The position numbers were made by a program, and so were the translations under genes. Below are positions 20,319 to 60,495 of a stretch of DNA of 64,000 bases, one piece after another. The stretch comes from a virus (Duplodnaviria > Caudoviricetes). The number at the start of each line of letters is the position of its first letter. The first letter of the stretch is position 1. The notes under the pieces are model-generated. The model was not told where the DNA came from. It saw only the letters and a program-made list of their open reading frames with translations, and searched no databases. The stretch lies in the IMG/VR virus record IMGVR_UViG_3300028048_003124; one strand, written 5' to 3'.

Positions 20319-23300
20319 ATGTCAGATGCAAATGTACTTGGTGCTTTAGACAAACAGAGCGGTGGCTATAAAAGACCAAGCTTGAATAACATCTTGATAT
20401 ATGGTAGAGTGCGTTGCATAATAAACAGACCAGCTTTAGTTGGAGATTCGATTATTGATGGTGATGGTTTTTATGCTATACTAGATGCTTATGCCTTTAA
20501 GTGCTTAGGTGAGGATTATTTCAGAGATAGTTATTCGTATGATGTTAATAGTATCTACTTTACAAAAGGTAGTATTTTAATATACATTTCAGACCCAACA
20601 TTAGTTGGTAAAGATGTGAAAGTCTATGGTAAGTCTAAGTCTTTTGGTGCAACGATTAGAAGGCAGGCTTCTAGTAATCCCGAAGAGGGTATTTCTGCGT
20701 TTATGTTTGGAGCTCCTCAAAAGTCTTGGAGGGGTAGGACAGTATATCAAATTGTACCTAATACAGTTATTAGGTTGAACGTAAAAGACCCAGACGCAAG
20801 GGGTACTGATTTAGAAGACTTTATAGTGTCTGTATTTGCTATGCAGGGTGGTGAGATACCGTACCCTAAGACATTAGATAGCATTATACCTTATACTGGT
20901 GCAAATATTTACACTGAGATAAGTGTTGACGACATAAAAAGAGCTTCTAAAGGCAAAACAAAAGAGAAAGAGAGAAAGAGCTCTCCATATATCTTTTCTA
21001 CTGGAGATGTTGACGTATCTAAAATAGATATGAAGTTAACTTTCCATTTACAGGGGCAGGAGAGATCTCAGTTTTATGAACCTTTTAAAGAGGATATACA
21101 GTTAAACGCAAAAGCAAGAAAAGATTTTGCTAAAGAAGCTATTTTTGAACTAAGTGAACGAATGAGTTCATACGAGGGTAGCGATTTTTACTGGTTAAAA
21201 GACTCTTTTATAAAAAACATTGTTGATCACCCAGAGAAGAGACTTGGTATAACAAGAACATTGTGCAAACAATACATTCTTGATTTTGTTGATAACTGTT
21301 ATACGGGTGTTTCATTATCCGAAGAGAAGCAGGGTACGAGATATTCAGACGGTCAACTGAGAATGATCAAAGATGGTATAGATAAACTCAAGAAGGGTAT
21401 TCTCTCAGATGCTTCATTATTGTATGGAGACTCAGGAGAGGACGGTATAGACGATATACCTATGCTTTCTGATGATTTTGCTTTTGTGCTGAATGTTATT
21501 TCAGTTTGTTCTGGCATACCTTTTTCCACTATCAGTGGAAACTACTTATACAGTGGTAGAATGGCTGGAATTAACAGAAATTTGTATTTATACTCTTTAT
21601 TAAGATGTCCTTATATTTTAGGAATGATAGGTGTAGGGTTATCTGTAAGTGATTGTGATGTTCTTTACTATTCCTTTGGAAAGGTATTTGGAGCATCAGA
21701 AGACGAAGATTTAAATACTAAATACAGGTCTTATATGATTATGCTAGATACGCTTAGTAATTGTATGGTTGGCGTCTATAAGAAGTATAACAGAGCAGGT
21801 CAGGTAAATACCTTTGTAAAGAGGAAGGACTATGCAAGAGCTGATAAGTGTTATTCTAATAAGGCATTAGGTTTTCTAAGCAGGTATGACTTTGTATCTA
21901 AGCCTGAAAATAAGGCTCTGCTTGAAATGCTATTAGGTAATAAGGTAGAGATCAAGGGTACTGATCTAAACTATATCTTAGATAATAAGTGGTACAGCAA
22001 TGACTTATTTGATGAGCTTGTATCAGCAGGTATCGTAAATACTCTTGACGACTATTGCGCTTTAGAAAGGGTAATTGAGCAAGAGTTTCTAATCTACGAA
22101 ACATTTGAAAGAATGGGTAAGTTGCCTACAGGAATAGTAGATTATACAATAAATGAGGTAATTGATGACTTTGAGAAGGATAGAGGTTTTAAGCTAGAAA
22201 GCCTACAGCGAGAGGGTATTAAACTCTGTAAGTATAGAGCAGGAGTTCTGAGTGGTTGTGCTGGAAGTGGCAAGACGACAACCAGTGATTGTATGACAGA
22301 GGTTTTAAAGACTTTAGGTGATAAGAAGATTATTTATTGCGCACCTACTGGAAAAGCAAGTAGACGTTTAGCTGAGGTCGTACATGGTACTGTAAAGACT
22401 ATACACTCTCAGTTTAATGTAAATATTGGAGGTTCATCATATCTACAGGGTGCTTATAAAAGAAAAGAAGATACACCTGGAGATGGTTCAATATACATTC
22501 TAGATGAGATGGCTATGTGTAGCACTGATTTAATGTACAATATAGCTAAAAATATTACCGAGAAGGATATAATTTACTTCTTAGGTGATGTAAAACAGTT
22601 ACCGCCTATAGGGGGAGGTTGTCCTTTTAAGACTCTAATGACAATATTGCCCTGTGTAGAGCTTGGTGTTAGTAAAAGAGCTGCCGAGGGTAGTCTTGTG
22701 AACTATAATACATCTCTGATAAATTTCATGTCTGATGACGTGGTAGCAGATTTGAAATATGATGGAAAAACATTTATAGATAAGAGTTGCCACGATGTAG
22801 ACATCGCCAATACTGTTAAGTCTGTATTTATCTCTTTCATGGATGGTACTTTAAATGGTATTAAGTATGATGAGGACGATATTCAGGTGATAACAGGGTA
22901 TCAGAAGAAAGAAAAGTTTTCTTCGACATATAGGTTAAATGCGCCAATTCAGGAGTTCCTTAGGAAGAATGATAAGGTCTTATACTACAGAGAGACTAGG
23001 GAACAAGGTGAAAGAAATATTCCTTATTATAAGAACGAAAGAGTTATCTATGTAAATAAAAACAGCTACGATATATGTAGGTATGTACTAGATGATAAGG
23101 GAGTGTTTCACCAAGTACCCACTTTTGGTTGTGTAAACGGAGAAATGGGTAAGTTGGTAGGTATTGTTAATTCTGAACATGCAAACATTGAGGAGTTTGT
23201 TAAAGAGAACACAGTAGCAGGAGAAGGTTTTTATTCAAATGTTTCTGATGAGGACTTAGAAGCAATTGTTGACAGATTTGAATCTCGCCAAGATAGTATG

Positions 23301-23723
23301 CGTGTGGACTCCAGCTTATCTCACAAAGATCATTATTTCTTGCTTATGCAGGTATATGATAGTGACTTAAGACGTGATGTCATCTGCCTGCTTAGGGGTA
23401 GAGCTCATGTTGCTATTACTGGTGAAGTATGTTTATCTGGTACAGATTTAGATAATTTAGCTTTAGCCTATGCTTTAACTTGTCATAAAATGCAAGGTAG
23501 CCAGAGCAAGGTTGTTATTGCTGTATTTGAATCTACTGGAAACCCTGATTTTATAAACAGAAATATGATAAACACCATCATAACTAGAAGTCAGGGTGTT
23601 GTATGTTGTGTAGGATCTGTATCTGGGCAAGACTCAATGCTAAACAGAGGTAGAAGAAAGGTCAGTAAAACTGATAGTAGGGATGTTTTATCTGTATTAT
23701 CGGGTACTGATGATTGGTTATAA
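20319..23723 (+). CDS. recD: RecD/RecD2-like SF1B helicase with long N-terminal region
   Basis: GCAGSGKTT, APTGKASRRL, ILDEMAM, GDVKQLPPIG, AYALTCHKMQGSQ, TIITRS. Confidence 0.9.
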   Translation: MSDANVLGALDKQSGGYKRPSLNNILIYGRVRCIINRPALVGDSIIDGDGFYAILDAYAFKCLGEDYFRDSYSYDVNSIYFTKGSILIYISDPTLVGKDVKVYGKSKSFGATIRRQASSNPEEGISAFMFGAPQKSWRGRTVYQIVPNTVIRLNVKDPDARGTDLEDFIVSVFAMQGGEIPYPKTLDSIIPYTGANIYTEISVDDIKRASKGKTKEKERKSSPYIFSTGDVDVSKIDMKLTFHLQGQERSQFYEPFKEDIQLNAKARKDFAKEAIFELSERMSSYEGSDFYWLKDSFIKNIVDHPEKRLGITRTLCKQYILDFVDNCYTGVSLSEEKQGTRYSDGQLRMIKDGIDKLKKGILSDASLLYGDSGEDGIDDIPMLSDDFAFVLNVISVCSGIPFSTISGNYLYSGRMAGINRNLYLYSLLRCPYILGMIGVGLSVSDCDVLYYSFGKVFGASEDEDLNTKYRSYMIMLDTLSNCMVGVYKKYNRAGQVNTFVKRKDYARADKCYSNKALGFLSRYDFVSKPENKALLEMLLGNKVEIKGTDLNYILDNKWYSNDLFDELVSAGIVNTLDDYCALERVIEQEFLIYETFERMGKLPTGIVDYTINEVIDDFEKDRGFKLESLQREGIKLCKYRAGVLSGCAGSGKTTTSDCMTEVLKTLGDKKIIYCAPTGKASRRLAEVVHGTVKTIHSQFNVNIGGSSYLQGAYKRKEDTPGDGSIYILDEMAMCSTDLMYNIAKNITEKDIIYFLGDVKQLPPIGGGCPFKTLMTILPCVELGVSKRAAEGSLVNYNTSLINFMSDDVVADLKYDGKTFIDKSCHDVDIANTVKSVFISFMDGTLNGIKYDEDDIQVITGYQKKEKFSSTYRLNAPIQEFLRKNDKVLYYRETREQGERNIPYYKNERVIYVNKNSYDICRYVLDDKGVFHQVPTFGCVNGEMGKLVGIVNSEHANIEEFVKENTVAGEGFYSNVSDEDLEAIVDRFESRQDSMRVDSSLSHKDHYFLLMQVYDSDLRRDVICLLRGRAHVAITGEVCLSGTDLDNLALAYALTCHKMQGSQSKVVIAVFESTGNPDFINRNMINTIITRSQGVVCCVGSVSGQDSMLNRGRRKVSKTDSRDVLSVLSGTDDWL

Positions 23724-42696: not shown

Positions 42697-42802
42697 TTAA
42701 ATACATCATCTAATGTTGATGCTTGCACGAACATTAGAAGTCTTGCAACCTCTGTATAGAGTACATTATTTTAAGTGTATTATTATACGGAGGTTTTTTA
42801 TT

Positions 42803-43615
42803 ATGTTAATAACAGAAGAAAATTTTGATAGGCTTTGTATCATATCCAACAATGGAGAGAAGTGGGTAATAACTAAATGGTATGGTGACGGGAGATTTAA
42901 GATAGAGCAAGGAGCAGCAACAGAAGAGAGAAAAGTGATAGATAATGTAGATGAGAAGGAGTTAGAGGTACTATTTAGAGGTAGTAGGATAGTTGAGATA
43001 GAGGGGAATGAAGAAAAAGGGAATAAGTTTATAAATAGAATAGGAGAGAGAAGTAGAAACTCGGAAGGTTTCCTAATGGAAATAACTGGGTATAGAAACG
43101 CAAATGATGTAGATGTGTTGTTTGTAGGATGTGATTTTGAGATTACTGGTACAAGATACAGTGGTTTTAAAGATGGGACACTATCCAACCCAATTTATAA
43201 GGTGGTGAGATGGACTTTAAGCCTGTTAATAGAGATGATACTAAATGAGAAGAAGGTCTGGGAAAACATTAAGGAATTAAAAGCCTATCGAGGAGAAATA
43301 GTGGCTGATTACTCTAAGAGCGATGAATATGCTGTAGACATAGATAAGATGGCAAGATTAACGAGATTGTTAGAAGAGTTTAACAGTGGTGAGGAAGGTG
43401 GTGATTGGTGTAAAATTTACCTGACTGATTTATGTGAACCAGACCTCTTGGGTATAATCAGAGATATAGAAACATATCTAAAGAAAGTCTATGGGTATTT
43501 CCATCTTGGAAGCGAAGCTGTAGTTGGTAAAGAGTTAGAAGATATAATAGAACAGACAAAGTTAAGCCTACGCAAGAAGGCTAGAAATGTAAAGAATGTC
43601 AAGGTTTATGACTAA
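42803..43615 (+). CDS. Protein carrying one copy of the ~55 aa RxGE repeat
   Basis: GGAGG RBS before ATG 42803. NRIGERSRNSEGFLMEITGYRNANDVDVLF...YSGFKDG. Confidence 0.75.
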   Translation: MLITEENFDRLCIISNNGEKWVITKWYGDGRFKIEQGAATEERKVIDNVDEKELEVLFRGSRIVEIEGNEEKGNKFINRIGERSRNSEGFLMEITGYRNANDVDVLFVGCDFEITGTRYSGFKDGTLSNPIYKVVRWTLSLLIEMILNEKKVWENIKELKAYRGEIVADYSKSDEYAVDIDKMARLTRLLEEFNSGEEGGDWCKIYLTDLCEPDLLGIIRDIETYLKKVYGYFHLGSEAVVGKELEDIIEQTKLSLRKKARNVKNVKVYD

Positions 43616-43635
43616 TACAAAGGAGGATAGTAATA

Positions 43636-43803
43636 ATGAAAGGTGTATTTAACTGCCCAGAGTATGCATACCATAGAAATTATGTTGTAGCAAGTGTGGT
43701 AAACCATGAACTATGGTTTTATGGAGCATGGGACGATAGGCAGTCTGCATATCAGGCAGCGGCTGAAATAAACGGTGTAGTGTTACCCAATAAAAAACTG
43801 TAG
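43636..43803 (+). CDS. Small phage protein (55 aa, not in ORF track)
   Basis: AGGAGG RBS. MKGVFNCPEYAY..YVVA..ELWFYGAWD..AYQAAAEING. Confidence 0.7.
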   Translation: MKGVFNCPEYAYHRNYVVASVVNHELWFYGAWDDRQSAYQAAAEINGVVLPNKKL

Positions 43804-43824
43804 TATAGTAGAGGGTTGTATAAA

Positions 43825-43926
43825 ATGAGTATGTTTACAGATGTCAAAGATAAAAACTTAACTGTAGCAGAGTTGAGAGATCATGAATCATTACCAAATA
43901 CATATATTATTCTACTAATAATGTAA
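43825..43926 (+). pseudogene. Truncated family C gene
   Basis: LTVAELRDHESLPNTYII matches the family C N-terminal motif; stops after 33 aa. Confidence 0.45.
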
Positions 43927-44095
43927 TAACGATGTACTTTCGAAAAGGAAGTAAGAAAAAGGACTGGTCTAATGGTAAGTATCTCGGCTCCGAAGGGTCT
44001 AAGATAGGGGTAACTGGTCTTTTGTGGAAGTTTGGTGCAATGTTAAGAGCACGAGTAGGGGTAGATTAATAGGAATTAAATATTGTTTATATGTG

Positions 44096-44150
44096 GCAAG
44101 GTGTTTTAGAGTAAAATGTTATTATTCTAGAATACCTTGCAATTTTTTTT
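44096..44150 (+). terminator. Terminator overlapping the cassette A promoter
   Basis: gcaaggtgttttagagtaa / ttattctagaataccttgc stem (with G-T pairs) followed by T8. Confidence 0.65.
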
Positions 44151-44165
44151 AAAATATGTTAATAT
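44137..44165 (+). promoter_or_regulatory. Promoter of helicase cassette A
   Basis: TTGCAA-17bp-TAATAT. Leader ataagtagtt.aaaa.ttggaggtt is shared with 49173-49232. Confidence 0.7.
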
Positions 44166-44194
44166 ATAAGTAGTTTAAAACTTGGAGGTTATTT

Positions 44195-45856
44195 ATGTCT
44201 TTATTAGTTGATAGAAGGCGTGAGGAGACGTACGCAGAGGCTAAAAATATTGTAATGGAGAAAGGCAAGGTATTAATAATAAGACCGACTGGTTTCGGGA
44301 AGACGGGCATACTCACTCACTTTATAAGAGATTATACAAAGGGCTTGACAAAGAAAGATGGGTGTCAGGTTATGTATATCTTTCCTACTCAGGTAATAAA
44401 AGATGCTGTACTTAAATTTTATTACCAAGAGGAAGGTCACGAGGGTATTCCTAACGTGACATTCGTTTCCTATGCAGGATTGGGTACTATGACAAGAGAA
44501 AAACTAAATAAGTATTTTAAGAATGTGAAGCTCATATTAGCAGATGAAGCCCATCTACTTGCTGGAGATAAGAGAAGTATCGGTATTAAAAAGGTGTTAA
44601 ATTTTCTACCTAATGCTCATTTTGTAGGAGCGACAGCTACTCCAGATAGGCTTGATGGTAGAGACATTCTTGGCGACTATTTTGATTACAATAGGGTGAG
44701 TTACTACACTTTACACGACGCAATACAGGAAGGGGTAATTCAAAAGCCAGTATATGTCTGGGCTTCGTACACGCAAGCAGATAAAGATACAGAATTAAGC
44801 AAGGAATACTACGAAGGGTATAAACATCTTAATGTAGAAGAGCGTAAAGAGCTTGATAATTTACTAAGAAGTAAAGTAATTGAGATTTCAAGATTGCAAA
44901 GGTTGGACGTAATAATTAAAGATGTGCTTGAAAAGTACGCCAGAAATACAACGTATATAAGAGGTATATTGTTCTTCACTAGCTTCTCAGATCTACACGA
45001 TAAAGGGGATGAAGTGGTAAGTTGGTTTAAGAAGGCATACCCAAATTATAGGGTTAATGTAACAATAGTTTCATCTGAGAAAAAAGAGTACAGGGATAAT
45101 GCAAAGAAAGTAACATTTATGAAGAGACGTAAAAATGTTATAGATTTGATATTTTCTGTAAATATGATGAACTTAGGGTATCATGTACCAGATTTAACAT
45201 TTGTTGGAATGCTCAGGGGTACTGTAAGTGATATTATATATGCTCAACAGTTAGGAAGAGTATTAAACTCTGGAACAACTGTGTCAGGTATTGTTTTTGA
45301 TTTTGTGGATAATCTTTTTAGAAAATCTGCCTTTGATGTACTTCAGAAACTAAAAGATCCAACAATAAAAGCTAAAGAGAGATTAAATGAGCTGTCGGAT
45401 AAGGTAATTGAAGCAGGTGGCAGGGTGCCAAATAATATAAAAGGTTTGTCAGAAGATGAAGAGGATGAAGTAATAGCTCTGTGGCATAGATTTAATGATC
45501 ATATTGGAAAAGGACCGTATGTTTCTGTTAATCAGTTATTACCTCAAGACTTAATAGCCACTGGGTATGAGGCAACATTTAGGGAATTGGTTGCAAAGAC
45601 TGTTGGAGAACCTTTACAGCACAGGTGCCACTGGGCATGGGCAAGATGGGTAGATGCAGGTGGTAAAACTGGTGATGGTACAATAGATTACTTTTTCGGC
45701 AATGCTTTTCCGCAAAATATGCCACCGTTAGGACCTTATTGTTGGATATATGATGTTAAGATCGAGGATGTGCTAAAGGCAATATATGATCCAGATAGAG
45801 ATATACATAAAGAGGTTGAGGAGTATATTAAGGTGTGTAATGCAAATAAGAAGTAG
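44195..45856 (+). CDS. SF2 DExH helicase (ResIII/Irc3-like), cassette A
   Basis: PTGFGKT, DEAH, GATATPDRLDG, VNMMNLGYHV, QQLGR. Unrecognised C-terminal domain AFPQNMPPLGPYC. Confidence 0.9.
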   Translation: MSLLVDRRREETYAEAKNIVMEKGKVLIIRPTGFGKTGILTHFIRDYTKGLTKKDGCQVMYIFPTQVIKDAVLKFYYQEEGHEGIPNVTFVSYAGLGTMTREKLNKYFKNVKLILADEAHLLAGDKRSIGIKKVLNFLPNAHFVGATATPDRLDGRDILGDYFDYNRVSYYTLHDAIQEGVIQKPVYVWASYTQADKDTELSKEYYEGYKHLNVEERKELDNLLRSKVIEISRLQRLDVIIKDVLEKYARNTTYIRGILFFTSFSDLHDKGDEVVSWFKKAYPNYRVNVTIVSSEKKEYRDNAKKVTFMKRRKNVIDLIFSVNMMNLGYHVPDLTFVGMLRGTVSDIIYAQQLGRVLNSGTTVSGIVFDFVDNLFRKSAFDVLQKLKDPTIKAKERLNELSDKVIEAGGRVPNNIKGLSEDEEDEVIALWHRFNDHIGKGPYVSVNQLLPQDLIATGYEATFRELVAKTVGEPLQHRCHWAWARWVDAGGKTGDGTIDYFFGNAFPQNMPPLGPYCWIYDVKIEDVLKAIYDPDRDIHKEVEEYIKVCNANKK

Positions 45857-45865
45857 GAGGCTTAA

Positions 45866-46933
45866 ATGTCTACATTAAAAAATAGAGTAGGTGAACGTCG
45901 CCAGATGAGTAATGGCGAGTGGGCAACTATAACTTGCTACAATGGTTGTAAGGATTGTACAGTGGTTTTTGATGATGGTACTGTAAGAGAGCATATGTCG
46001 TATGATAGCTTTAAAAATGGTGTAATCTCGAAAAATGGGAAGTCAGGTAATTTTATCGACAGAACTGGTGAGAGAAAGCAGATGAGTAACGGGGAGTGGG
46101 TAACTGTTATTCGTTATGGTGGATGGGGGGATTGTGATTTTCGGTTTGACAATGGTGTTGTGAAACATGGTAAAAAGTATAGGGGTTTTTCAGATGGTAC
46201 TCTGTCAAGTCTTTCTAGGGAGGGGCAAACAAGTCAAGAGTGTAAGGAAAAATACATAGGAACAAAATGGAAGCAGAAGTGTGGTAAGACGGCAGAGATT
46301 ATAGATTATTTTGATTGGAATAATTGTACAGTAAGGTTTGATGATGGAACATTAAAAACAGGTGTTAAGGTAGGAAGACTAAAAGAAGGAAAAGTAGGGT
46401 ATGGAAGTAAACGTAAATTAAGAACTAGTGATATGTTGATGGGTTCCTCGAAGAGAATGAATTGTGGACTGACTGCTCAGATAGTGGGATTCACTAAATC
46501 TAAGAGCGGGGTAAAGAAATGCGTGTTACAGTTCGAGAATGGAGAGAGGACATCTGTTACTATGCCTAGCTATGATGCTGGAACTGTGCTTCCACCAAGT
46601 ATGAAGCCGTCATCTAAAGTAGGGAAAGTTTTTGTAGCAGATAACGGGTTTAAGGTAAGGGTGGTGTCTTGGGCAGGTAATGGTAAGTATCTATTTGAAT
46701 TCCAAGATGGTAAGAGAAATACAGGAGAGCTAAAGTGTAATTTAGCTCATGTAGCCCGTCCAATAGAGGTTGGAACTTATAGATACACTTTATACAATTA
46801 CAGGTATAATAAGTATTATGCGTATGATTTGGGTGATAAGAGGTATTTTAAATGTGAAGATAAAAACGGTGTTCGAGATGTACTAACTCTTGAAGAGATG
46901 ATGGTTAAGTCAGGGATAAAGTTGCTATTTTAA
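45866..46933 (+). CDS. Tandem-repeat protein (5 RxGE repeats + conserved C-terminal domain)
   Basis: Repeats such as RVGERRQMSNGEWATITCY....DCTVVFDDG....YDSFKNG; ends SGIKLLF. Confidence 0.85.
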   Translation: MSTLKNRVGERRQMSNGEWATITCYNGCKDCTVVFDDGTVREHMSYDSFKNGVISKNGKSGNFIDRTGERKQMSNGEWVTVIRYGGWGDCDFRFDNGVVKHGKKYRGFSDGTLSSLSREGQTSQECKEKYIGTKWKQKCGKTAEIIDYFDWNNCTVRFDDGTLKTGVKVGRLKEGKVGYGSKRKLRTSDMLMGSSKRMNCGLTAQIVGFTKSKSGVKKCVLQFENGERTSVTMPSYDAGTVLPPSMKPSSKVGKVFVADNGFKVRVVSWAGNGKYLFEFQDGKRNTGELKCNLAHVARPIEVGTYRYTLYNYRYNKYYAYDLGDKRYFKCEDKNGVRDVLTLEEMMVKSGIKLLF

Positions 46934-46941
46934 AAGTAGGG

Positions 46942-47004
46942 GTGAGTGATATAATGACTCTACAAGAAATGGTAGTAGTTTCAGGCAGAAAGTTGGTGTT
47001 TTGA
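46942..47004 (+). pseudogene. Orphan copy of the repeat-protein C-terminal tail (20 codons)
   Basis: VSDIMTLQEMVVVSGRKLVF*, with TGA overlapping the ATG of the next gene. Confidence 0.7.
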
Positions 47005-47681
47005 TGCCAAAGTTTGTAAATAGGACGGGCGAGACAAGATTGATGAATTGTGGACTGCGGGCTGAGATAGTAGAATATAGGTCATCATCTGATATAGATA
47101 TAGTATTTGAAACAGGAGAGAGGGTAAATAGCAGGAATTATAGTGCCTTTAAAGATGGGCACATTCTTCCAAAAACAGGACCAAACAAACACCGTTTAGG
47201 GGAAAAAAGGATGATGAGCTGTGGCTTAAGTGCGGAGATTATAAGGTATGGCGGTTGTTTTGATATTGATGTACGTTTTGAGAATGGGGTTGTTGTAGAA
47301 AATATTAGGTACAGTAAGTTTAAAACGGGAGATGTAGGTCACTCAATAGTGGTTGTTAACGGTAGGTTAGGTGAAATAAGAATGATGTATAATGGCTTAA
47401 GGGCAAAGATAGTTAAGTATAATACATCAAAAAATTATACTATTCGTTTCGAAGATGGTATTGAGGTTGTTTGTTCTGATTACAGGAATTTTTTAACAGG
47501 AAAGTGTAGGCACCCGCATTTCTCAACTGGCAATGTTTCAAGAAACTTCTACGGATATAAAGTGCGAAGGTGTTATGTATTAAGGGATAAGGTGTACTAT
47601 TTTTGTGAAAAGGGTGGGACAAGAGATATAATGACCCTACAAGAAATAGTAAAATCTATGGGTAGAGAATTGGTGTTTTAG
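47004..47681 (+). CDS. Tandem-repeat protein (3 repeats + C-terminal domain)
   Basis: RTGETRLMNCGLRAEIVEY....DIDIVFETG type x3; ends MGRELVF. Confidence 0.85.
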   Translation: MPKFVNRTGETRLMNCGLRAEIVEYRSSSDIDIVFETGERVNSRNYSAFKDGHILPKTGPNKHRLGEKRMMSCGLSAEIIRYGGCFDIDVRFENGVVVENIRYSKFKTGDVGHSIVVVNGRLGEIRMMYNGLRAKIVKYNTSKNYTIRFEDGIEVVCSDYRNFLTGKCRHPHFSTGNVSRNFYGYKVRRCYVLRDKVYYFCEKGGTRDIMTLQEIVKSMGRELVF

Positions 47682-48878
47682 ATGAGAAATAAATTTGATA
47701 GATTGGGAGAAACTAAAGTAATGCTTTGTGGTCTAAAAGCCACAATTATTCGCTATGGGGGTTATAATGATGTAGATATTCGTTTTGAGGATAACTCTAT
47801 AGTAAAAAACATTTACTATAAGCGTTTTTCAAATGGAACGGCAAAACCATTAAGATTAAGACATAAAAAGCCAGTAAATGATAGGACTGGTGAGGAAAAA
47901 GTGATGTCGTGTGGGTTAAAGGCTAAGATAATTGCTTACAGGAACTGTTGTGATATGGATGTGATATTTGAAGACGGTCAAATCAGAAAAGGAGTAAAGT
48001 ATAGTTCTTTTAGACATGGTTACATAGCTCCAGAGATTGACCCTAGGGTAGTGGTGGAGCAACAAAGTAGACTTGGTATGGAGCGTAAAATGAATTGTGG
48101 TTTGGTTGCGAAAATCATAGCCTACAGAAGTTCTGCTGATATAGATGTACAGTTTCCAGATGGAAGTATAAATAAGAATAAGCTATATTCCAGTTTTCTT
48201 AAAGGGGAGATAGCTCCCAAAAAGTGTAATCGTGTCGGAGAAAAGAGAATAATGAATTGTGGGTTAGAAGGTGAGATAATTCGTTATGGTACAGCTGAGG
48301 ATATAGATGTACGTTTTCCAAATGGCAGTGTAGCTAAAGGAAAAACATATGGTTCCTTTTCAAAAGGTAGTATAAAACCCCCAATAAACCCATATGTGGG
48401 TGAGAGACGTATGATGAATTGTGGTCTGGAGTGTGAGATAGTTCGTTATGTGGGTTGTAGAAATATAGACGTTAGATTTTCAAACGGTGTTGTAGTAAAC
48501 AGTAATCTTGCAAAGTTTAAGAATGGTAAGATAACGCCAGATTATGCAGAAATAACACATAGAGAGGGTTTAATCGTACAAACAAACTGCGGTTTAAGGG
48601 TAAAAATCGTAAGGTACAGTAGTAGTGCAGACATAGATATCTGTTTTGAGGATGGTGCAGTTATAAACAATACTAGATATGATGGAATATCCAAGGGTTC
48701 TGTGCTACATCCGAGCATGCTTGGAGGTTTATATTCAAGAGATTTCCATGGGTATAAGATTAAGTTTGCATATAAGTTAGGGGATTTAGTTTACTATTTC
48801 TGTGAAAAAAGTGGAGAAAGAAGTATAATGACCCTACAAGAGATGGTAATAGCTTCAGGTGGAAAACTTGTCTTTTAG
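47682..48878 (+). CDS. Tandem-repeat protein (6 repeats + C-terminal domain)
   Basis: RxGE..MNCGL...I.RY....DIDVRF.DG type x6; ends SGGKLVF. Confidence 0.85.
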   Translation: MRNKFDRLGETKVMLCGLKATIIRYGGYNDVDIRFEDNSIVKNIYYKRFSNGTAKPLRLRHKKPVNDRTGEEKVMSCGLKAKIIAYRNCCDMDVIFEDGQIRKGVKYSSFRHGYIAPEIDPRVVVEQQSRLGMERKMNCGLVAKIIAYRSSADIDVQFPDGSINKNKLYSSFLKGEIAPKKCNRVGEKRIMNCGLEGEIIRYGTAEDIDVRFPNGSVAKGKTYGSFSKGSIKPPINPYVGERRMMNCGLECEIVRYVGCRNIDVRFSNGVVVNSNLAKFKNGKITPDYAEITHREGLIVQTNCGLRVKIVRYSSSADIDICFEDGAVINNTRYDGISKGSVLHPSMLGGLYSRDFHGYKIKFAYKLGDLVYYFCEKSGERSIMTLQEMVIASGGKLVF

Positions 48879-48942
48879 AGTGGGTTTAAAAGATGAGAAA
48901 GTGCCGAATGTAAGAGTATCTGCAATAATTACCAATGATGGT

Positions 48943-48977
48943 CTTGCACTTCTTGTCCATATATGGTAAGATATATT
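48943..48977 (+). repeat. 35-bp exact direct repeat, copy 1; a sigmaA-like promoter
   Basis: cttgcacttcttgtccatatatggtaagatatatt, identical to 53930..53964. TTGCAC-17-TAAGAT. Confidence 0.85.
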
Positions 48978-49086
48978 TGGAAGTAAGGCTGTAGTTGGTG
49001 ATGAGTTAAAGGAGTTAGTAGAGAGTGCAAAGGAAGGTTTGAGAAAGAAGGCTAGAAACATAAAGAATATCAAGGTGTATTGTTAA
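48976..49086 (+). pseudogene. 3' remnant of a paralog of 42803..43615
   Basis: FGSKAVVGDELKELVESAKEGLRKKARNIKNIKVYC* vs LGSEAVVGKELEDIIEQTKLSLRKKARNVKNVKVYD* (43505..43615). Confidence 0.8.
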
Positions 49087-49172
49087 TATGAGCATACCTG
49101 TTTATCATTTTTGATCTCCTCTCTTAATATGTGTAAGGTCTACTTACTTAAAAAAATTTATTTCAGAATGCC

Positions 49173-49201
49173 TTGCAAAAATGAAAGAATTTTGCTAATA
49201 T
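49173..49201 (+). promoter_or_regulatory. Promoter of helicase cassette B
   Basis: TTGCAA-17bp-TAATAT, homologous to 44137..44165. Confidence 0.7.
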
Positions 49202-49232
49202 ATAAGTAGTTAAAAAGTTGGAGGTTTTAATT

Positions 49233-49976
49233 ATGTCTACAGGGTTGCAAAGAGATGTATACATGGAGATATCAGAGACTGGCATGAAAGAAGCTATAGC
49301 TCTGTTTGAGTCTTTTGTAAAAAGAAACCCAGAGATGGTAAAATCTGATCTTAAGTCTTGTGAACAACCAGAGAAGTCTTTTACTGTTGTATTAACAGAT
49401 TGGTTTAAGTTAAAGGTATTAATAAAAGGTAAAGAGTATACCGTAACTGAGTATAAAGATAACGATAAGACTTTTGCGCTATCTTTTATTCCAAAGGTAG
49501 ATAGAATCGGTGATTTGTTAATTAAGATGTCCTCTTTGTCTGTATATGGAGAGAAAGAAGAGGGGTACTTAAGACACAATGTACCTGCCTTTAAGTTTTG
49601 GCTTGAGAGAGCGGCGAAGTTAGCAGTATCTGCAAGTATGCTAATAAGATATCAAAAGATACAATATGTAGAAAGAAAAAGGCAGAATTTTGCAACGGGT
49701 AATGTTGTAGACTTAACTAAACCGAGTAAAGATATAGTGATAGATTTGGAAAAGGCTATAAGGACTAAGCCAGTAAGTACTGGTAAGGGTGGCGAGCATA
49801 GTTATTGCTACTCCAGAAGTGCTTGTGATTGCTACCTTAAAAAGTATAAAAAGTGGTACAAGCGAGGTGTATCAATAGTACATCCTGAAAAACCTACGAG
49901 GGCGCAGGGAAGTAAAACTGTTAAAGGTTTGGATAAAGCTGAGTTATTAAAAGGGAAAGGTATAGCTTATGGATAG
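49233..49976 (+). CDS. Hypothetical protein with basic C-terminus, first gene of cassette B
   Basis: GGAGG RBS before ATG 49233; overlaps helicase B start. Confidence 0.75.
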   Translation: MSTGLQRDVYMEISETGMKEAIALFESFVKRNPEMVKSDLKSCEQPEKSFTVVLTDWFKLKVLIKGKEYTVTEYKDNDKTFALSFIPKVDRIGDLLIKMSSLSVYGEKEEGYLRHNVPAFKFWLERAAKLAVSASMLIRYQKIQYVERKRQNFATGNVVDLTKPSKDIVIDLEKAIRTKPVSTGKGGEHSYCYSRSACDCYLKKYKKWYKRGVSIVHPEKPTRAQGSKTVKGLDKAELLKGKGIAYG

Positions 49977-51786
49977 TAATATGCTTATAGCAAGAAGAAG
50001 GGAAGAGTGCTATCAGGATGCAGTAAACCTGTTAATGGAGTATGACGAATGTTTAATACCAAGGGGTACTGGTTTTGGAAAGACTGGTATATTGATGAGG
50101 ATAGCTCATGATTATTTGAAAGGGTATAAAAGAGGTATATTAAACCAAAAAGTTTTATACCTATATCCGCATACCTCTGTGTTAGAACAGGCTGAGAATT
50201 TTTGGGGTATATTTAAGTATAATAAAGACAAATTTAAGGGCATACGTTGTATGTCCTATACTGCTTTTTTATACATGAGTAGGGAGAGAATGGAGAAGGA
50301 GTTTAAAAGAGTTAACTTAATTCTCTGCGATGAGTGTCATTTCCTACCAGCTAAACAGATTTCAAAGGCTTTTGAAATGTTGAGAGATGTTAGACAGGAT
50401 GCAAAGGTTGTAGGTGCAACAGCTACTGTACTTCGTATGGATGGTAAAGATCTTGTTGAAAGATTTTTCAAAGGTCATGTAGTGAGGGAGTACACGTTGT
50501 CCGACATGATTGCAGAAGGGGTAGTAAAGAAGCCGTTTTATTTGTACTGTACTTTTGACAACGAAGATTCTATAAATAAGGCTGTAAGAAGGCTTCAAGA
50601 TGAGGTAAAAGGTTTGTCCTTTAAAGAAACTGAAAAAGTAAAAAAACATATAAGGAGTGAATATGCAAGAGCCTCAGCAATGGTGGGAGTAAAGAGGGTA
50701 TTTTCAGATGTACTCCACAACCATGCTCCCAACCAGAGGATAATAACTGGTATTTTCTTTTTTAAGACAATAAAACATATTTATGATAGAAGAAAAGAAA
50801 TTGAAGAGATGGTTAGAGCAGCATATCCGAATCATAAATTAAATATAGTGATACTGCATAGTCAATTAAAAGAGAAAGAAAAGATTGAGGCTTTAGAAGC
50901 TGTCAGTTGTTTTGGAGAAGAGGAAGATGTTTGTAACATCGTATTAAATGTAGATATGTTAAGCCACGGGGTACATATATCAGGATTGACTTTTGTTGCT
51001 ATGTACAGGGAAACATCTTCTGGTTTAATATATGGTCAGCAGTTTGGAAGAGCTATAGACTCTGGCAGTAGTGTACCGTCTATTATATTTGATATGGTAG
51101 ACAATTTACATAGACCAAGTATCTACAAGTCTGATGATAGAAAACAGATATCTGAAGAGGATCTTGCTCTTTGGGAGAGGTTGAATGAGAAGCTTATTAA
51201 TAAGGGTATTTATGATTTAAGCGATATTGAAAGTGTATTAACAGCCGAAGAGGTTTCAGAATATAAAAGGTTATCCAACCTAATAAATACTCCAATAATT
51301 ATTGACAAAGGTGGTACCAGAGGAGGAGATAAAAGTAGTTGTGATCCTTGGTATTACAATGTAAATACTATCTCCGAGAAAGATGTAAATGTGTTAACAA
51401 GCTCTGCAAGTGTAAGAGAGATAATGGAAAAGGTAGACGGATATAGTTTAAGAGCACAGGCAAAGAGAGCTCACCTCATGTGGATCAAGCATTTTAAAGA
51501 ATTAAATCAAGAAGATTATAACAGGTTTATACGGTTGCAAGATAATAATAAGGTGAGGTATATATTAGATAAAGCTTTCCCAGATAAAGGGGTACCACCT
51601 TTCTTAAGGTACTGTGCTTGTAGCAGCATCACGCTTGAAAGAGCACTATATTGTCTATACAACTATACAATGACTAAAAAAGACATACAGGAGTATATAA
51701 ACAGAGCAAAAAACTTAGAGAATTCCTTTATGTTATGTAATGGAGTTGAAGTCGCCAGTCGGGGGTGGATTGGACGTGCGCAGTGA
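49969..51786 (+). CDS. SF2 DExH helicase (ResIII/Irc3-like), cassette B
   Basis: GTGFGKT, DECH, GATATVLRMDG, VDMLSHGVHI, QQFGR. C-terminal AFPDKGVPPFLRYC shared with helicase A. Confidence 0.9.
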   Translation: MDSNMLIARRREECYQDAVNLLMEYDECLIPRGTGFGKTGILMRIAHDYLKGYKRGILNQKVLYLYPHTSVLEQAENFWGIFKYNKDKFKGIRCMSYTAFLYMSRERMEKEFKRVNLILCDECHFLPAKQISKAFEMLRDVRQDAKVVGATATVLRMDGKDLVERFFKGHVVREYTLSDMIAEGVVKKPFYLYCTFDNEDSINKAVRRLQDEVKGLSFKETEKVKKHIRSEYARASAMVGVKRVFSDVLHNHAPNQRIITGIFFFKTIKHIYDRRKEIEEMVRAAYPNHKLNIVILHSQLKEKEKIEALEAVSCFGEEEDVCNIVLNVDMLSHGVHISGLTFVAMYRETSSGLIYGQQFGRAIDSGSSVPSIIFDMVDNLHRPSIYKSDDRKQISEEDLALWERLNEKLINKGIYDLSDIESVLTAEEVSEYKRLSNLINTPIIIDKGGTRGGDKSSCDPWYYNVNTISEKDVNVLTSSASVREIMEKVDGYSLRAQAKRAHLMWIKHFKELNQEDYNRFIRLQDNNKVRYILDKAFPDKGVPPFLRYCACSSITLERALYCLYNYTMTKKDIQEYINRAKNLENSFMLCNGVEVASRGWIGRAQ

Positions 51787-52654
51787 CTTTAAAGATAGAG
51801 TTGGTGAGCGCCGACAAATGAGAAATGGCGAGTTTGCTACAATAATTAGATATGGCAGTAGTCTTGATATTGATGTTCAGTTCGATAGTGGTTATATTTC
51901 AAGAAATAAGCAGTATAGCTCATTCTCTGTAGGTAGCATAAGGAATGTAGAGAGTGGTAAATCGGCTAAAGGTGCAAAAGCTAGATCCTCCTATGTTGGA
52001 AAGGTTGTAACAAATAAGGAAGGCGAAAAAGTAAAATGCATCGAGTACAGAGGGTATTATGATATAGATGTTGAGTTCGAGGATGGCTTGGTATTAGAAA
52101 GTAAATCGGCAAGAAGTTTCTTAAGTGGTTATATAATACGCCCTTATGAAGGACGTGTAAAGAAAAACAAAAATGGTCTAAACACAATAATAAAAGAGTA
52201 TCGTTCCCCTACAGATATTGACGTAATTTTTGATGATGGAGAAGTAGTAGAGGGTGTTAGTTTTTGTAGATGGAATGCAGGTAAAATTCTCCATCCAAAG
52301 TGGAGGGAAAACAGGCTACTTGATACCGTAAAATGTGAAATATATTCTAACATTCAGGGTTTTAGGTATAAGATAGTCGAGACAAAAAACTCAATAGATG
52401 TAAAGGTGCTTTTTGAGGACGGAGAGGAAGCAGATGCAAGATTAAGTAATGCCAAAAGAGGTAGAGTTGGATACCCAGGGTTTAGTAATGGTTTATGTAA
52501 AATGTTGTATGAAAGGTTTAAGGATGTACACAAGGTGTATGAAATCAAAGGGAAGGGTGTATTTATTGAATACACTGATACTCAAGATGGTGCTACAAAG
52601 ATAGGTAAAATTCAAGAGCTAATGGATATGATAGGTATAAAGAGGTTATTCTGA
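51740..52654 (+). CDS. Tandem-repeat protein (4 repeats + C-terminal domain)
   Basis: RVGERRQMRNGEFATIIRYGSSLDIDVQFDSG...; ends IGIKRLF; start may be GTG 51776. Confidence 0.85.
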   Translation: MELKSPVGGGLDVRSDFKDRVGERRQMRNGEFATIIRYGSSLDIDVQFDSGYISRNKQYSSFSVGSIRNVESGKSAKGAKARSSYVGKVVTNKEGEKVKCIEYRGYYDIDVEFEDGLVLESKSARSFLSGYIIRPYEGRVKKNKNGLNTIIKEYRSPTDIDVIFDDGEVVEGVSFCRWNAGKILHPKWRENRLLDTVKCEIYSNIQGFRYKIVETKNSIDVKVLFEDGEEADARLSNAKRGRVGYPGFSNGLCKMLYERFKDVHKVYEIKGKGVFIEYTDTQDGATKIGKIQELMDMIGIKRLF

Positions 52655-53901
52655 TGAAAAAGATATATGTAAACGGGGTAAAAGGCATTACAGTTTACGG
52701 AATCGGCATGGTGATAGTAGATGATAGTAATAGTAGATCTCTTACAGTCAAGCTAGAGACTAATGAAATTATCTATAATGTCACAGTAAATAGCTTTAGA
52801 GAAGGTTTAGTTCATAGCTCATTTGAGGATATAGGGAAGTTCAAAAAAGGGACAGAGTGGAGAGTTCTAAATGGTATTGGTCGCATAGTTGGTAAGAGAA
52901 AATATAAGTGTGATATTGAAGGTATAAACGGGGAAGGATATGCTTTCGATGTTTATCCTTGGGCTTTAGAGAATGGTAATGCTACATTAAGTTGGAATAT
53001 AGTTGGTACCGAGAGGGCTAACGGCGATGGTAGGATAGTGAAGATACTTGAGGTTGTAGATAGTGAAAATATCAGGGTACAGCTTGAAAAAGACGGAATA
53101 AAAGATATTGTGGTATGTCCAATAAAAGATTTTATAAATAAAAGTATTGGTGTATATGATAAAAGGAAGGAAAAGTTCTTAAATAGCTTAAAAGGTAAGA
53201 GGGTACTCCAACCTAATAGCGGTATGTTTGCAGAAGTAAAAAATGTTTACAGAGAGAATGGTATCATAATTTGTGATATATTGTTTGATGACGGAAAAAT
53301 TGTAGACGGTGTAACGTATGCTAACTTTTGCGCAGGTAGTGTAAAACACCCTGAAAAGAGATTGCATATAGACAAGATAGTGGAAAAGAAAGAAAAAGAG
53401 GTTGTAATAAATAAGGATGGTAGGAAATCAAGGTTAAAACGTTGGAGAGGTAATCAACGTGTAGACGTAGTTTTTATAAATGAAGATGGAACAGAGGATA
53501 TTATTGTAGAAGATGTAAATTACAGATCTTTTAAGGCTGGTAATGTAAAACACCCAGATGATGAAACAATAGTCGGTGAAATAGTTGTCAATACAGACGG
53601 TTTTAGAATGAAAATGGAGAATGACGACAATACAAAAGAGTGTAATATACTTTTTGAGGATGGTAGAGAAGTTACAAATAGCAAGTCAAATTTCCTAAAC
53701 GGGAGTGTTGGTCACCCACTATTTAAAGGCACGAAGAGAAGATCTTGCAAAGCCTATGGAGATGTTTTAGATGTACATAGAGAGTTTAAAACCTCTCAAG
53801 GAGTTTGCTACTGGTCATGGGTAAGATATGGAGAATATACTAGGGAGTTAGGAACAGTAGAGAACTTAATGACAGCAGCGGGTATTAAGCCAGTATTTTA
53901 A
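52654..53901 (+). CDS. Tandem-repeat protein (~6 diverged repeats + C-terminal domain)
   Basis: CDILFDDG..YANFCAGSVKHP, VDVVF..YRSFKAGNVKHP, CNILFEDG..NFLNGSVGHP; ends AGIKPVF. Confidence 0.8.
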   Translation: MKKIYVNGVKGITVYGIGMVIVDDSNSRSLTVKLETNEIIYNVTVNSFREGLVHSSFEDIGKFKKGTEWRVLNGIGRIVGKRKYKCDIEGINGEGYAFDVYPWALENGNATLSWNIVGTERANGDGRIVKILEVVDSENIRVQLEKDGIKDIVVCPIKDFINKSIGVYDKRKEKFLNSLKGKRVLQPNSGMFAEVKNVYRENGIIICDILFDDGKIVDGVTYANFCAGSVKHPEKRLHIDKIVEKKEKEVVINKDGRKSRLKRWRGNQRVDVVFINEDGTEDIIVEDVNYRSFKAGNVKHPDDETIVGEIVVNTDGFRMKMENDDNTKECNILFEDGREVTNSKSNFLNGSVGHPLFKGTKRRSCKAYGDVLDVHREFKTSQGVCYWSWVRYGEYTRELGTVENLMTAAGIKPVF

Positions 53902-53929
53902 AGTAAAGTTAACAATTCTCACTGAAGAG

Positions 53930-53964
53930 CTTGCACTTCTTGTCCATATATGGTAAGATATATT
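53930..53964 (+). repeat. 35-bp exact direct repeat, copy 2; a sigmaA-like promoter
   Basis: Identical to 48943..48977. Confidence 0.85.
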
Positions 53965-53988
53965 CATACTTATATAGGGGTGACTAGT

Positions 53989-54219
53989 ATGGCTATGTGT
54001 ACTGTAAGGGAAGAGCGAGAGGATGCTAACTATGAGATGGCAGCTCATGTATTTAAAGATAACAACTTGATTGCTATCTTTAGGGGTGGCTGTATGGATG
54101 ACTCTTGTATAGTAACGATACAAGATGGGTATACATACGCTGGAATAATGAGCTCAGAGGTTCGAGACTCTTACATGACAATTCAAAGTGGTAGAGTTGT
54201 TCAGGTGTTGACTATTTAA
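53989..54219 (+). CDS. Small hypothetical protein
   Basis: GGGGTG RBS before ATG 53989. Confidence 0.6.
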   Translation: MAMCTVREEREDANYEMAAHVFKDNNLIAIFRGGCMDDSCIVTIQDGYTYAGIMSSEVRDSYMTIQSGRVVQVLTI

Positions 54220-54241
54220 GTAGGTAAAGGGGTAAAGCACT

Positions 54242-54469
54242 ATGACTGTGAAAGAGTTAAGACAGAAAGAAGGCAATCCTTATACTGAGATTTATGATAG
54301 TGTTGGGTTATTGATGACTCACTCTAGATTAAATATGGTTGCATATACTCGCAATTGTGCAGAAAAGAAAACAGTTGATTCTATGGTAGTCAAGAGCCAC
54401 CATTACGGTGTAACGAGATCGGTAACAGACAACGTGACCGTAGAGTGTTGTTTATACATATATGTATAA
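54242..54469 (+). CDS. Small protein, family C
   Basis: MTVKELRQKEGNPYTEIYD. Confidence 0.7.
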   Translation: MTVKELRQKEGNPYTEIYDSVGLLMTHSRLNMVAYTRNCAEKKTVDSMVVKSHHYGVTRSVTDNVTVECCLYIYV

Positions 54470-58910: not shown

Positions 58911-58939
58911 TTGCAAAAAGAAGAGAATTGTGTTACAAT
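58911..58939 (+). promoter_or_regulatory. sigmaA-like promoter
   Basis: TTGCAA-17bp-TACAAT with extended TG. Confidence 0.7.
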
Positions 58940-58968
58940 TAACCTACAAAAGCAAGGAGGTTGTTACA

Positions 58969-59625
58969 ATGAAAAATAATAGTGGGTTTGTAAATAACGA
59001 AAAAGTATCTCCGAAATCAGATGGTATTAAGGTTAAGGGGTATGAGGCATTAGTCAATAGGATTGGTGAGGAGAGGGTTGCCAACAACGGTCTTATGATG
59101 AAGATCGTAGGGTATCGAAACGCAAATGATATTGACGTCCTTTTCGAGGATGGTACACTTGTTGTAGGTAAGTCTTATGCATCTTTCCTTAAGGGCAGTA
59201 TTGCTAAGAAGAAAACTGAGCTTGAGTGTATTTCAGACTCCTTAACTGAGTTATACGATACATTCTGTGATGATGGCGCGAAGATACGTGAGATTATCAT
59301 AACCTTTGTTGAAGACCATGAGTTTCAAATCATTTCAGACAAGGGTATTTTTTATATAAACAACAATAATCATTTGGTCGATAAGATCATTCATGACGCT
59401 TCTTTTGCGTTAAAGAGATACCCTCACAAAAGTGCTGTACTCAATAAATTGTACAGACGTGTTATGAGATATATCAACTATCGTAAAATCAATGTATCTA
59501 AAGTTACATTCGAGATTGACAACGAGAGATTTACCTCGTCGGGTGTTACTATAACCTCTGAGAGTGTTAACTATGTTGAGGGTTTTATACATTTTTCTTT
59601 TTCGACGAATCTGTCTAAAGCTTAG
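58969..59625 (+). CDS. Protein carrying one RxGE repeat
   Basis: AGGAGG RBS. NRIGEERVANNGLMMKIVGYRNANDIDVLFEDG...YASFLKG. Confidence 0.8.
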   Translation: MKNNSGFVNNEKVSPKSDGIKVKGYEALVNRIGEERVANNGLMMKIVGYRNANDIDVLFEDGTLVVGKSYASFLKGSIAKKKTELECISDSLTELYDTFCDDGAKIREIIITFVEDHEFQIISDKGIFYINNNNHLVDKIIHDASFALKRYPHKSAVLNKLYRRVMRYINYRKINVSKVTFEIDNERFTSSGVTITSESVNYVEGFIHFSFSTNLSKA

Positions 59626-59652: not shown

Positions 59653-60495
59653 GTGATTTTGGTGGTATATTTCCTCAACGAGGGTAGGTTCATACCTAAG
59701 GATGATAAGGATGTTGTTATTTACGCTGTGTTGCTTAATGCCCAGAGACTTGATGCTGAAAGGGTAGTGGGCAAGACATTCATGACTACAAACAAGTTTT
59801 TAGCTTATAACTCAACACAGGGTGTAAAAGGCTCTGTAAGTAGGAAATGTAGCACCTTGTATGCAGCTAAGAAGATGTGTGATAAGCCAATACTTTTCTA
59901 TAAGACAGCCAAAGGCAATAATACCATAAAATCTGATAGCTTGCCTTTTTCTTATACAGATCATTACAGTTATGCCTATATTGATGGCTCTTTTAACGAC
60001 AGGTCAGAGGTATATGGTTGGGGAGGTTTTTTAGATAAGAACGGCATACGTCACATATTAAAGGGTAGTAGAAAAGATGACTATTCTAGATATGGTAGCG
60101 TAGCAGGAGAACTTTTTGGTGTCATCGATACTTTGAAGAAAGCCAGAGAGATTGGAGTAAGTGGTCTTATAATTTACTATGACTTTGATTGTATATATCG
60201 GTACTTGCTTGGAAGTCATGGTAGTAAAAATGATATCGCTATGTTGTATAAAGATACGGTAAAAGAAGCAATAAGTGATGGTTTGGATTTGATACTCGTC
60301 AAATTATCAAGCCATTCGGGTATTGCTGGAAATGATATAGCTGATCGCTTAGCGAGAGAAGCCGTTGGTCTAAGATCAGTAGGATGTTTACCATCAGGTT
60401 TCTTTAAGCCTAAGTGTAGATACCGTTGTTTTCCTGTAGAGTTTGCAGGAAAACGTATAACTGCTGATACTTTTATAAGTAGTGAGGTAGATTAA
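59653..60495 (+). CDS. rnhA: Ribonuclease HI with N-terminal extension
   Basis: YIDGSF, AGELFG, IYYD, SHSGIAGNDIADRLA (DEDD tetrad). Confidence 0.85.
   Translation: MILVVYFLNEGRFIPKDDKDVVIYAVLLNAQRLDAERVVGKTFMTTNKFLAYNSTQGVKGSVSRKCSTLYAAKKMCDKPILFYKTAKGNNTIKSDSLPFSYTDHYSYAYIDGSFNDRSEVYGWGGFLDKNGIRHILKGSRKDDYSRYGSVAGELFGVIDTLKKAREIGVSGLIIYYDFDCIYRYLLGSHGSKNDIAMLYKDTVKEAISDGLDLILVKLSSHSGIAGNDIADRLAREAVGLRSVGCLPSGFFKPKCRYRCFPVEFAGKRITADTFISSEVD

Follow-up and report, generated by a model that had tools for sequence, protein, structure and literature searches.

The 64,000-nucleotide (nt) stretch of virus DNA described here (the window; Duplodnaviria, Caudoviricetes, IMG/VR virus record IMGVR_UViG_3300028048_003124) contains, within positions 45866-53901, five paralogous + strand genes, A-E, whose products are built from copies of a unit of ~50 amino acids (aa). 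A preliminary description of the locus had pointed to a fixed unit scaffold with two hypervariable patches and had suggested a recognition code. The question raised by the locus is what these arrays recognise, and for which partner.

The unit is probably a new modular DNA-targeting domain. The full reading favoured here, held tentatively and at a little short of even confidence, is that the arrays are modular DNA-targeting modules that recruit effectors, in the window a superfamily 2 (SF2) motor, with a variable hairpin and helix as the specificity surface and a C-terminal tail as the docking module. Each unit, a small barrel, would present one polar hypervariable surface, built from the tip of the β2-β3 hairpin (positions 20-23) and the start of a short helix (39, 41, 42 and 47) and flanked by the conserved basic residues R18, K38 and K44/K45. 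Several units on flexible linkers of 3-13 aa would jointly specify a DNA site, the common tail would attach the array to the SF2 helicase alongside, and alternative array proteins would direct one motor to different sites, as specificity subunits serve the type I restriction motor. We infer DNA as the ligand, the patches as determinants of specificity and the docking of tail to helicase. This reading is favoured because the partners of the arrays act on DNA: TniQ fusions, a PD-(D/E)xK-like insert, HNH and helix-turn-helix (HTH) proteins and SF2 helicases. It also draws on the focusing of variation on the two patches, the reshuffling of unit types, the basic character of the proteins and the excess of replacements at variable positions between 97.5%-identical elements.

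The repeat unit and its variable patches

Units were located with a hidden Markov model (HMM) grown from the obvious copies. There were 23 in A-E (per-unit E 5e-6 to 1e-24) and two further solo units in open reading frames (ORFs) 42713-43615 and 58930-59625; the earlier estimate was ~26. Tandem Repeats Finder detected no repeat in this region because the DNA copies are too diverged (60-78% identical). The repeat is real but old and is visible solely at the protein level, where the window units are 19-60% identical to one another.

Per-column entropy was calculated for the window units and for 835 units from about 125 homologues, and the same positions peaked in both sets. In the family set the scaffold (<0.8 bits) consists of R1, G3, M8, G11, I16, I17, Y19, D24-I-D-V27, F29, D31-G32, Y40, F43, G46 and I48, with E4, C10 and A14 also well conserved (0.9-1.1 bits); the family signature is R-x-G-E...D-I-D-V-x-F-E-D-G...Y-x-x-F-x-x-G. 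The scaffold residues first proposed (G, G, I, Y, D-x-x-V-x-F, G, F, G) were recovered as G3, G11, I16/17, Y19, D24-x-x-V27-x-F29, G32, F43 and G46. The entropy maxima include patch 1 (positions 20-23, 2.4-3.7 bits) and patch 2 (positions 39, 41, 42 and 47, 3.3-3.5 bits); positions 33 and 36 are the next most variable (2.7-2.9 bits). The window units contain all 15 four-residue strings quoted earlier as following the Tyr, as well as the YxxF strings quoted there, and the arrangement of a fixed scaffold with two hypervariable patches holds across the family. The variable positions are populated by G/S/T/K/A/N/E/R/Y, with hydrophobics at about 5%, and are flanked by the conserved basic residues R18, K38, K44 and K45. 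The array proteins are basic, with an isoelectric point (pI) of 8.6-9.5 in the window and a family median of 9.06. In 92% of cases the spacing between units is 53-64 aa, and the 3-13 aa linkers are modelled as disordered.

Clustering of units at 90% identity gave 573 types. Among the types found in at least three proteins (n = 63), 35 occurred at more than one array index and 34 had two or more different successors; the units behave as reshufflable modules. A 97.5%-identical copy of the window was present on a 223.8-kb metagenome scaffold, and of the 19 in-unit replacements between the two, 9 fell on the ten variable positions, with an odds ratio of 3.6 (p = 0.008). In this one close pair pN/pS was 0.38 at variable codons against 0.16 in the scaffold, which indicates faster change and leaves positive selection undemonstrated, since weaker constraint alone could suffice. 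The alignment, entropy and dN/dS check proposed in the preliminary description gave entropy peaks at both patches and no demonstrated positive selection.

The same data can be read without a code. The arrays might be sequence-independent nucleic-acid binders working by avidity, with contacts like those of Sso7d or KOW domains, and the patches would then be the least constrained exposed positions; this is considered unlikely. The pN/pS below 1 at variable codons is in keeping with it, as are the 350 distinct patch-1 strings (positions 20-23) among 858 units, with no recurrent small alphabet, and the variable, flexible linkers. Exposure alone, however, fails to explain the site of variation, because two other loops, M8-N-C-G11 and E30-D-G32, are nearly invariant in the 835 units. 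Patch length is constant across units, and a single helicase is accompanied by several distinct arrays. Unit types are held at ≥90% identity yet reshuffled among proteins, which implies that each has a value of its own. The TnsD-type selectors and homing nucleases discussed below also require specific sites.

The 23 units are distributed over the five + strand genes as follows. Protein A (355 aa, pI 9.5; 45866..46933) has five units (45884-46036, 46061-46213, 46253-46402, 46433-46594 and 46613-46774) and a Cys-less tail domain (roughly 46751-46930). Protein B (226 aa; 47001..47681) has three (47022-47171, 47193-47342 and 47364-47513; E 1e-21 to 1e-24) and a tail (47499-47678). Protein C (398 aa; 47682..48878) has six (47700-47849, 47883-48032, 48069-48218, 48231-48380, 48393-48539 and 48561-48710) followed by its tail. 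Protein D (304 aa; 51740..52654) has four (51797-51946, 51992-52144, 52145-52294 and 52319-52477) and a tail (52472-52651), and protein E (415 aa; 52654..53901) has five more degenerate units (52651-52821, 52999-53178, 53173-53349, 53389-53553 and 53569-53715; E 5e-6 to 2e-16) and a tail (53719-53898). The solo units lie, also on the + strand, at 43037..43192 (E 2e-16) in the 300-aa ORF 42713-43615 and at 59059..59211 (E 3e-23) in the 231-aa ORF 58930-59625. Both of these ORFs lack the tail, and the remainder of each had no match in Pfam or PHROGs.

Predicted fold and the nature of the ligand

AlphaFold2 modelling of a single unit, with 137 unit sequences as input, gave a predicted local distance difference test score (pLDDT) of 87.4, with strands at 5-7, 13-21, 24-29 and 34-38 and a helix at 40-45. 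The unit is predicted to be a small β-barrel of the SH3/Tudor/KOW type (β1-4, short helix, β5), a fold that is neither that of TALE (transcription activator-like effector) repeats nor that of zinc fingers. From the strands and helix of this model, patch 1 lies at the turn of the β2-β3 hairpin, and patch 2 combines the first part of the helix with the residue that follows G46. The only conserved Cys of the unit is C10, and no His is conserved. A model of protein C, built with 31 homologues, consisted of six separate barrels joined by disordered linkers (pLDDT 78, predicted template modelling score 0.31), with the tail as three strands and a helix.

In the VIA structure search, KOW, Tudor and SH3 chains aligned over 42-47 residues with Z scores of 4-5.7. 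The top match was KOW 5oho (Z 5.3-5.7, root-mean-square deviation 2.2-2.3, 44-45 residues aligned), with the UvrD Tudor 7egt (Z 4.9-5.0), 5dma (Z 4.5), the N-terminal barrel of Hpy99I (3fc3, Z 4.7-4.9) and various SH3 and Tudor domains also listed; a complex of PWWP with single-stranded DNA (6kco) is among the structure-search matches as well. The Z list is flat, so it settles the fold class and not family membership. Foldseek with a single unit gave template modelling (TM) scores of 0.5-0.6 to Tudor domains with non-significant E values (none ≤ 0.001). Matches of the whole 398-aa model of C to β-propellers and Spt5 in Foldseek (TM <0.25) were discarded as artefacts, because the model is beads-on-a-string.

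Most SH3 and Tudor domains bind proteins or peptides, and the UvrD/PcrA Tudor domain binds RNA polymerase (RNAP). In the strongest rival to DNA targeting, the units would do likewise: the patches would recognise diverse proteins of the host or of rival elements, RNAP or defence proteins for example, to which the helicase, TniQ or nuclease would thereby be anchored. The structural neighbours include helicase-attached UvrD/PcrA Tudor protein binders (7egt and 5dma) and classical SH3 and Tudor domains. By topology, the hairpin and helix would belong to the usual SH3 ligand face, the n-Src-like hairpin and 3-10-like helix lining the canonical ligand groove. Protein binding is nevertheless judged improbable. 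The partners are overwhelmingly DNA-site-selecting enzymes (TniQ in the TnsD position, homing-type nucleases, HTH proteins), with which a DNA reader would be expected, and the array proteins are basic. So far as the sequence and predicted strands show, the conserved aromatics Y19, F29, Y40 and F43 alternate with core-like spacing and give no sign of a conserved aromatic cage.

Many small barrels, among them KOW, Sm and some Tudor and PWWP domains, bind single strands. The units could accordingly recognise single-stranded DNA or RNA rather than duplex DNA and bring the helicase to particular transcripts or to unwound stretches, for which KOW as the top structural match, the presence of 6kco in the lists and the helicase partner in the window can be cited. 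TniQ/TnsD-type selectors and homing or PD-(D/E)xK-type nucleases, however, act on duplex DNA, and single-strand reading is the least probable of the alternatives considered.

The unit is absent from the catalogues under a name of its own. Protein C had 378 homologues in a set of 5.8 billion proteins, nearly all unnamed and metagenomic, and the unit profile matched 3,510 cluster representatives among 1.84 billion (E ≤ 0.001). The arrays of this family have 3-13 units and come from gut and rumen Bacillota and jumbo-phage-like contigs. No match in Pfam, NCBIfam, PADLOC or PDB sequence profiles covered unit, tail or cassette. In Pfam, Tudor_3 (20.5 bits, cutoff 25.8) and Tudor_2 (14.6 bits, cutoff 31.4) stayed below threshold and KOW gave no match; a PDB profile search with the unit gave E 0.01-0.2, the best (0.01) to the KDM4B tudor domain, and PDB sequence-profile searches with the tail and with the mid-array insert described below found nothing. 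Faint matches to DUF5780, Pertus-S4-tox, CBM_26, DUF2187 and Tudor_3 were sub-threshold, differed from homologue to homologue and were not accepted. Neighbours in the ESM Atlas were 'hypothetical protein' clusters of Uroviricota and Bacillota and one TniQ cluster. No description of the unit family was found in the published literature, and the main text of a paper on the mining of hypervariable repeats does not mention it (PMC10392669). The unit already sits, unnamed, inside PHROG 'HNH endonuclease' profiles. Whatever its ligand, the unit defines a domain family that Pfam lacks and that counts about 3,500 cluster representatives.

Partners of the arrays and turnover of the locus

Among ten long homologues, seven consisted of a TniQ N-terminus followed by an array, one (P0225) was a fusion of a ResIII ATPase to an array, and one (P0260) had units mixed with HTH_23 and HTH_7. 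The C-terminal extensions of TnsD are thought to confer target-DNA recognition (PMC10293859). A Tn7-like element of Holdemanella biformis DSM 3989 (L006; NZ_DS996845.1, 1-7692) encodes, in this order, a TnsA-like protein, a 769-aa ORF, an AAA_22 ATPase, a TniQ protein with four units at its end and a free six-unit array with a zinc-type tail. Holdemanella sp. MSK.7.32 (L007) has this same element at the same place; the comparison of the two yielded only this shared position and was uninformative about a code. None of A-E matched TniQ in Pfam, and the array region of the window has helicases and no transposase genes.

An insert of 150-190 aa was present in the middle of the array in 58 of the 139 top representatives. 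Its E-x-D, E-Y-D-G and K motifs are invariant and an H is nearly invariant (at least 90% of sequences). It gave weak matches to DUF2726 and DUF559, Pfam families of the PD-(D/E)xK clan, and the proteins that carry it match phrog_559 and phrog_3339, annotated as HNH and homing endonuclease. From these motifs the insert is a putative nuclease of PD-(D/E)xK/Vsr-like type with arrays on both sides. The units-insert-units architecture is a major one in the family (L001, L010-L013, L016-L021, L023 and L036; e.g. L016:6913-7437), and such array-nuclease-array proteins are a natural counterpart of an engineered array-nuclease fusion. HNH endonuclease PHROGs are matched, at 1e-56 to 1e-60, by phage proteins that carry one unit at the N-terminus. 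In phage and Bacilli proteins a single N-terminal unit is followed by an HNH-type body at L051:6031-6828, L056:5953-6753 and L030:1532-2293 (phrog_953, 374 and 2081) and to a cysteine-rich, Vsr-like body at L058:5980-7401 (phrog_4538, of unknown function).

In the window the partner is an SF2 helicase. Each of A-E ends in the common tail domain of about 50 aa, which in most relatives has a C-x-C-x2-C...H-x-C pattern; the lineage of the window has lost these cysteines, and its tails end in G-x-K-L-V-F. An array adjoined the helicase in all 12 sampled homologues of the window's SF2 helicase. Tail-bearing arrays stand next to the helicase in the window's two cassettes, at L002-5, L022, L035 and L037 and beside all six further homologues (38-52% identity) of H1, the helicase of the first cassette, which were chosen only for their long contigs; outside the window the number of such arrays immediately next to each helicase was one to three. 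The helicase-array pair is conserved, since every sampled helicase homologue has a tail-bearing array alongside; the converse fails, many arrays having no such helicase nearby. Arrays with zinc-type tails lie upstream of the helicase (L063, L064, L037 and L022), whereas those with Cys-less tails ending in hydrophobic-Phe lie downstream (the window, L035, L059-L062 and L002), a pairing of tail type and gene order that may reflect two co-evolving subfamilies of helicase and tail. P0225 was considered as a close relative of H1, which BLASTP did not bear out, and it therefore counts only as a separate instance of an array linked to an SF2 ATPase. PADLOC 2023 gave no match for the arrays, and the helicases matched only the generic helicase cores of mREase_IV and REase_I (E 5e-13 to 1e-6). 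Regardless of the ligand, the strictly conserved pair of SF2 helicase and array genes in jumbo-phage-like elements is an uncharacterised two-component system.

The window has 35% GC, all of its genes are on the + strand, and it carries the phage-like replication genes PolA (15349-18570), an NAD-ligase domain (6467-7780) and a UvrD-like helicase (20319-23723); it belongs to a large rumen mobile element. DNA and tblastn searches against the INPHARED phage set gave no matches, and a peptide-pattern scan of genome contigs with H1 found no relatives. There are two cassettes with an SF2 helicase at the head of each, and the array ORFs are split into two groups by the second helicase gene and an unknown ORF. 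H1 (553 aa; 44195..45856, + strand) matches Pfam DEAD (1e-11), ResIII (2e-10) and SWI2_SNF2, and PHROG 16 'DNA helicase' (1e-32). H2 (605 aa; 49969..51786, + strand) matches ResIII (5e-9), Helicase_C (2e-7) and DEAD (2e-7). The two are paralogues (31% identical), and both match ResIII, DEAD and Helicase_C. The 252-aa ORF upstream of H2 (49218..49976, + strand) overlaps the H2 start and is kept in L034, the 97.5%-identical relative, with dN/dS 0.16; it had no match in Pfam, PHROG or NCBIfam and no homologue at the other helicase loci examined.

Turnover of the cassettes was followed in a related element, L059, in which H1 is kept at 94.6%, a different five-unit array replaces A, and C and the entire second cassette are absent. 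Just past the A stop the window has an orphan remnant of an array-gene tail (46932..47002, + strand; DNA 73% identical to the tail-coding ends of B and C), which is the true 3' end of the L059 five-unit array gene. A has thus taken the place of most of that gene, whose tail remained. After its B-like gene, L059 continues directly with the sequence from 53911 onwards. Two pairs of spacer repeats, each 87% identical, occur in the window. One, a 54-nt direct repeat on the + strand (48924..48977 and 53911-53964), follows the last array gene of each cassette and has promoter-like hexamers; the other (44152-44190 and 49188-49226) precedes H1 and ORF 49218 and has a GGAGG ribosome-binding site. Because L059 joins the first copy of the former repeat to the sequence past the second, these spacers look like recombination points for the gain and loss of cassettes, and the L059 differences indicate exchange of array genes and cassettes at conserved tails and spacer repeats. 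Swapping of cassettes between near-identical elements is what one would expect at loci involved in conflict or targeting; fast turnover of this kind, typical of arms-race loci, also fits units that bind proteins. A diversity-generating retroelement was considered and rejected: the direct repeats in 43500-54400 are only 60-87% identical and are paralogous coding units or promoter-like spacers, and no reverse transcriptase domain lies nearby. A weak RNase H match was found at 59653-60495.

Several observations weigh against DNA-targeting arrays docked to a motor. The mean unit charge is only about +1, and the conserved acidic residues D24 and D26 directly follow the variable hairpin, which would be unusual beside phosphates. 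Linker length varies, so the units have no fixed register on a helix. The pN/pS values fall short of positive selection, and the flat, generic fold matches take in numerous Tudor and SH3 domains that bind peptides or proteins, as well as the RNAP-binding UvrD/PcrA Tudor. As to docking, the tail is also found without a helicase, as in the Tn7-like context of L006, and homotypic docking through a tail-like domain in the helicase C-terminus was rejected (best domain E 0.33). A simple, one-to-one TALE-like code is not supported, given the different fold, the 350 patch-1 strings among 858 units, the flexible linkers and the acidic residues beside the hairpin. If the arrays do read DNA, they would be an undescribed natural targeting scaffold already coupled to a transposase recruiter, a nuclease and a helicase; they would offer ready-made systems for working out specificity rules and, possibly, a protein-only targeting module for genome engineering.

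Comparison with known systems

In the most far-reaching form of DNA targeting, which is offered as a speculation and thought unlikely to hold in full, the arrays would add a third class, built from SH3-fold barrels, to the natural modular DNA-recognition arrays known from zinc fingers and TALEs. A short DNA word would be read by the hairpin tip and the helix start, mobile elements of gut Bacillota would use the arrays to aim Tn7-like transposition, cleavage or an SF2 motor, and the relation of unit to word could be decoded and re-engineered. Like C2H2 zinc-finger arrays, the present arrays have small independent modules on short linkers, a conserved scaffold with few variable surface positions, variable unit number and reshuffling. 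They differ in that the unit is predicted to be a ~50-aa SH3-type barrel with no Cys2His2 site and no ββα fold, in linkers of 3-13 aa against the fixed TGEKP-like linker of zinc fingers, and in that DNA binding is here a proposal.

With the TALE repeats of Xanthomonas and Ralstonia the arrays share tandem units, localised hypervariation and rearrangement of repeats between family members. TALE repeats, however, are helical hairpins of 33-35 aa that stack into a rigid superhelix and are near-identical except at two residues, for which only a handful of pairs is used, whereas the array units are predicted ~50-aa barrels of four to five strands and one short helix, 19-60% identical, with about 10 variable positions and floppy linkers. 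SH3-fold barrels such as Tudor, KOW and chromo-like domains, the UvrD/PcrA Tudor and the Hpy99I N-terminal barrel share the predicted topology; the arrangement in arrays of 3-13 units, the family signature and the set of partners are specific to the array family, which fell into no sequence family above threshold.

Type I restriction-modification systems (HsdR with exchangeable HsdS) resemble the cassettes in combining a ResIII-type SF2 motor with several alternative partners that have variable recognition parts and a conserved, putative docking part and are swapped by recombination. The likeness is functional only: homology to HsdS or HsdM is absent, as is a methylase, the helicase contains no recognised nuclease domain, and A-E and their neighbours gave no match to HsdS target-recognition or methylase families in Pfam, NCBIfam or PADLOC. 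The TnsD/TniQ selectors differ from the window proteins, which have neither a TniQ domain nor transposase neighbours, and the TnsD extensions described so far are HTH-rich rather than barrel arrays (PMC10293859). They are nonetheless matched in layout by many homologues of the family, in which a TniQ N-terminal domain is followed by an array at the position of the DNA-recognition extension of TnsD (PMC10293859).

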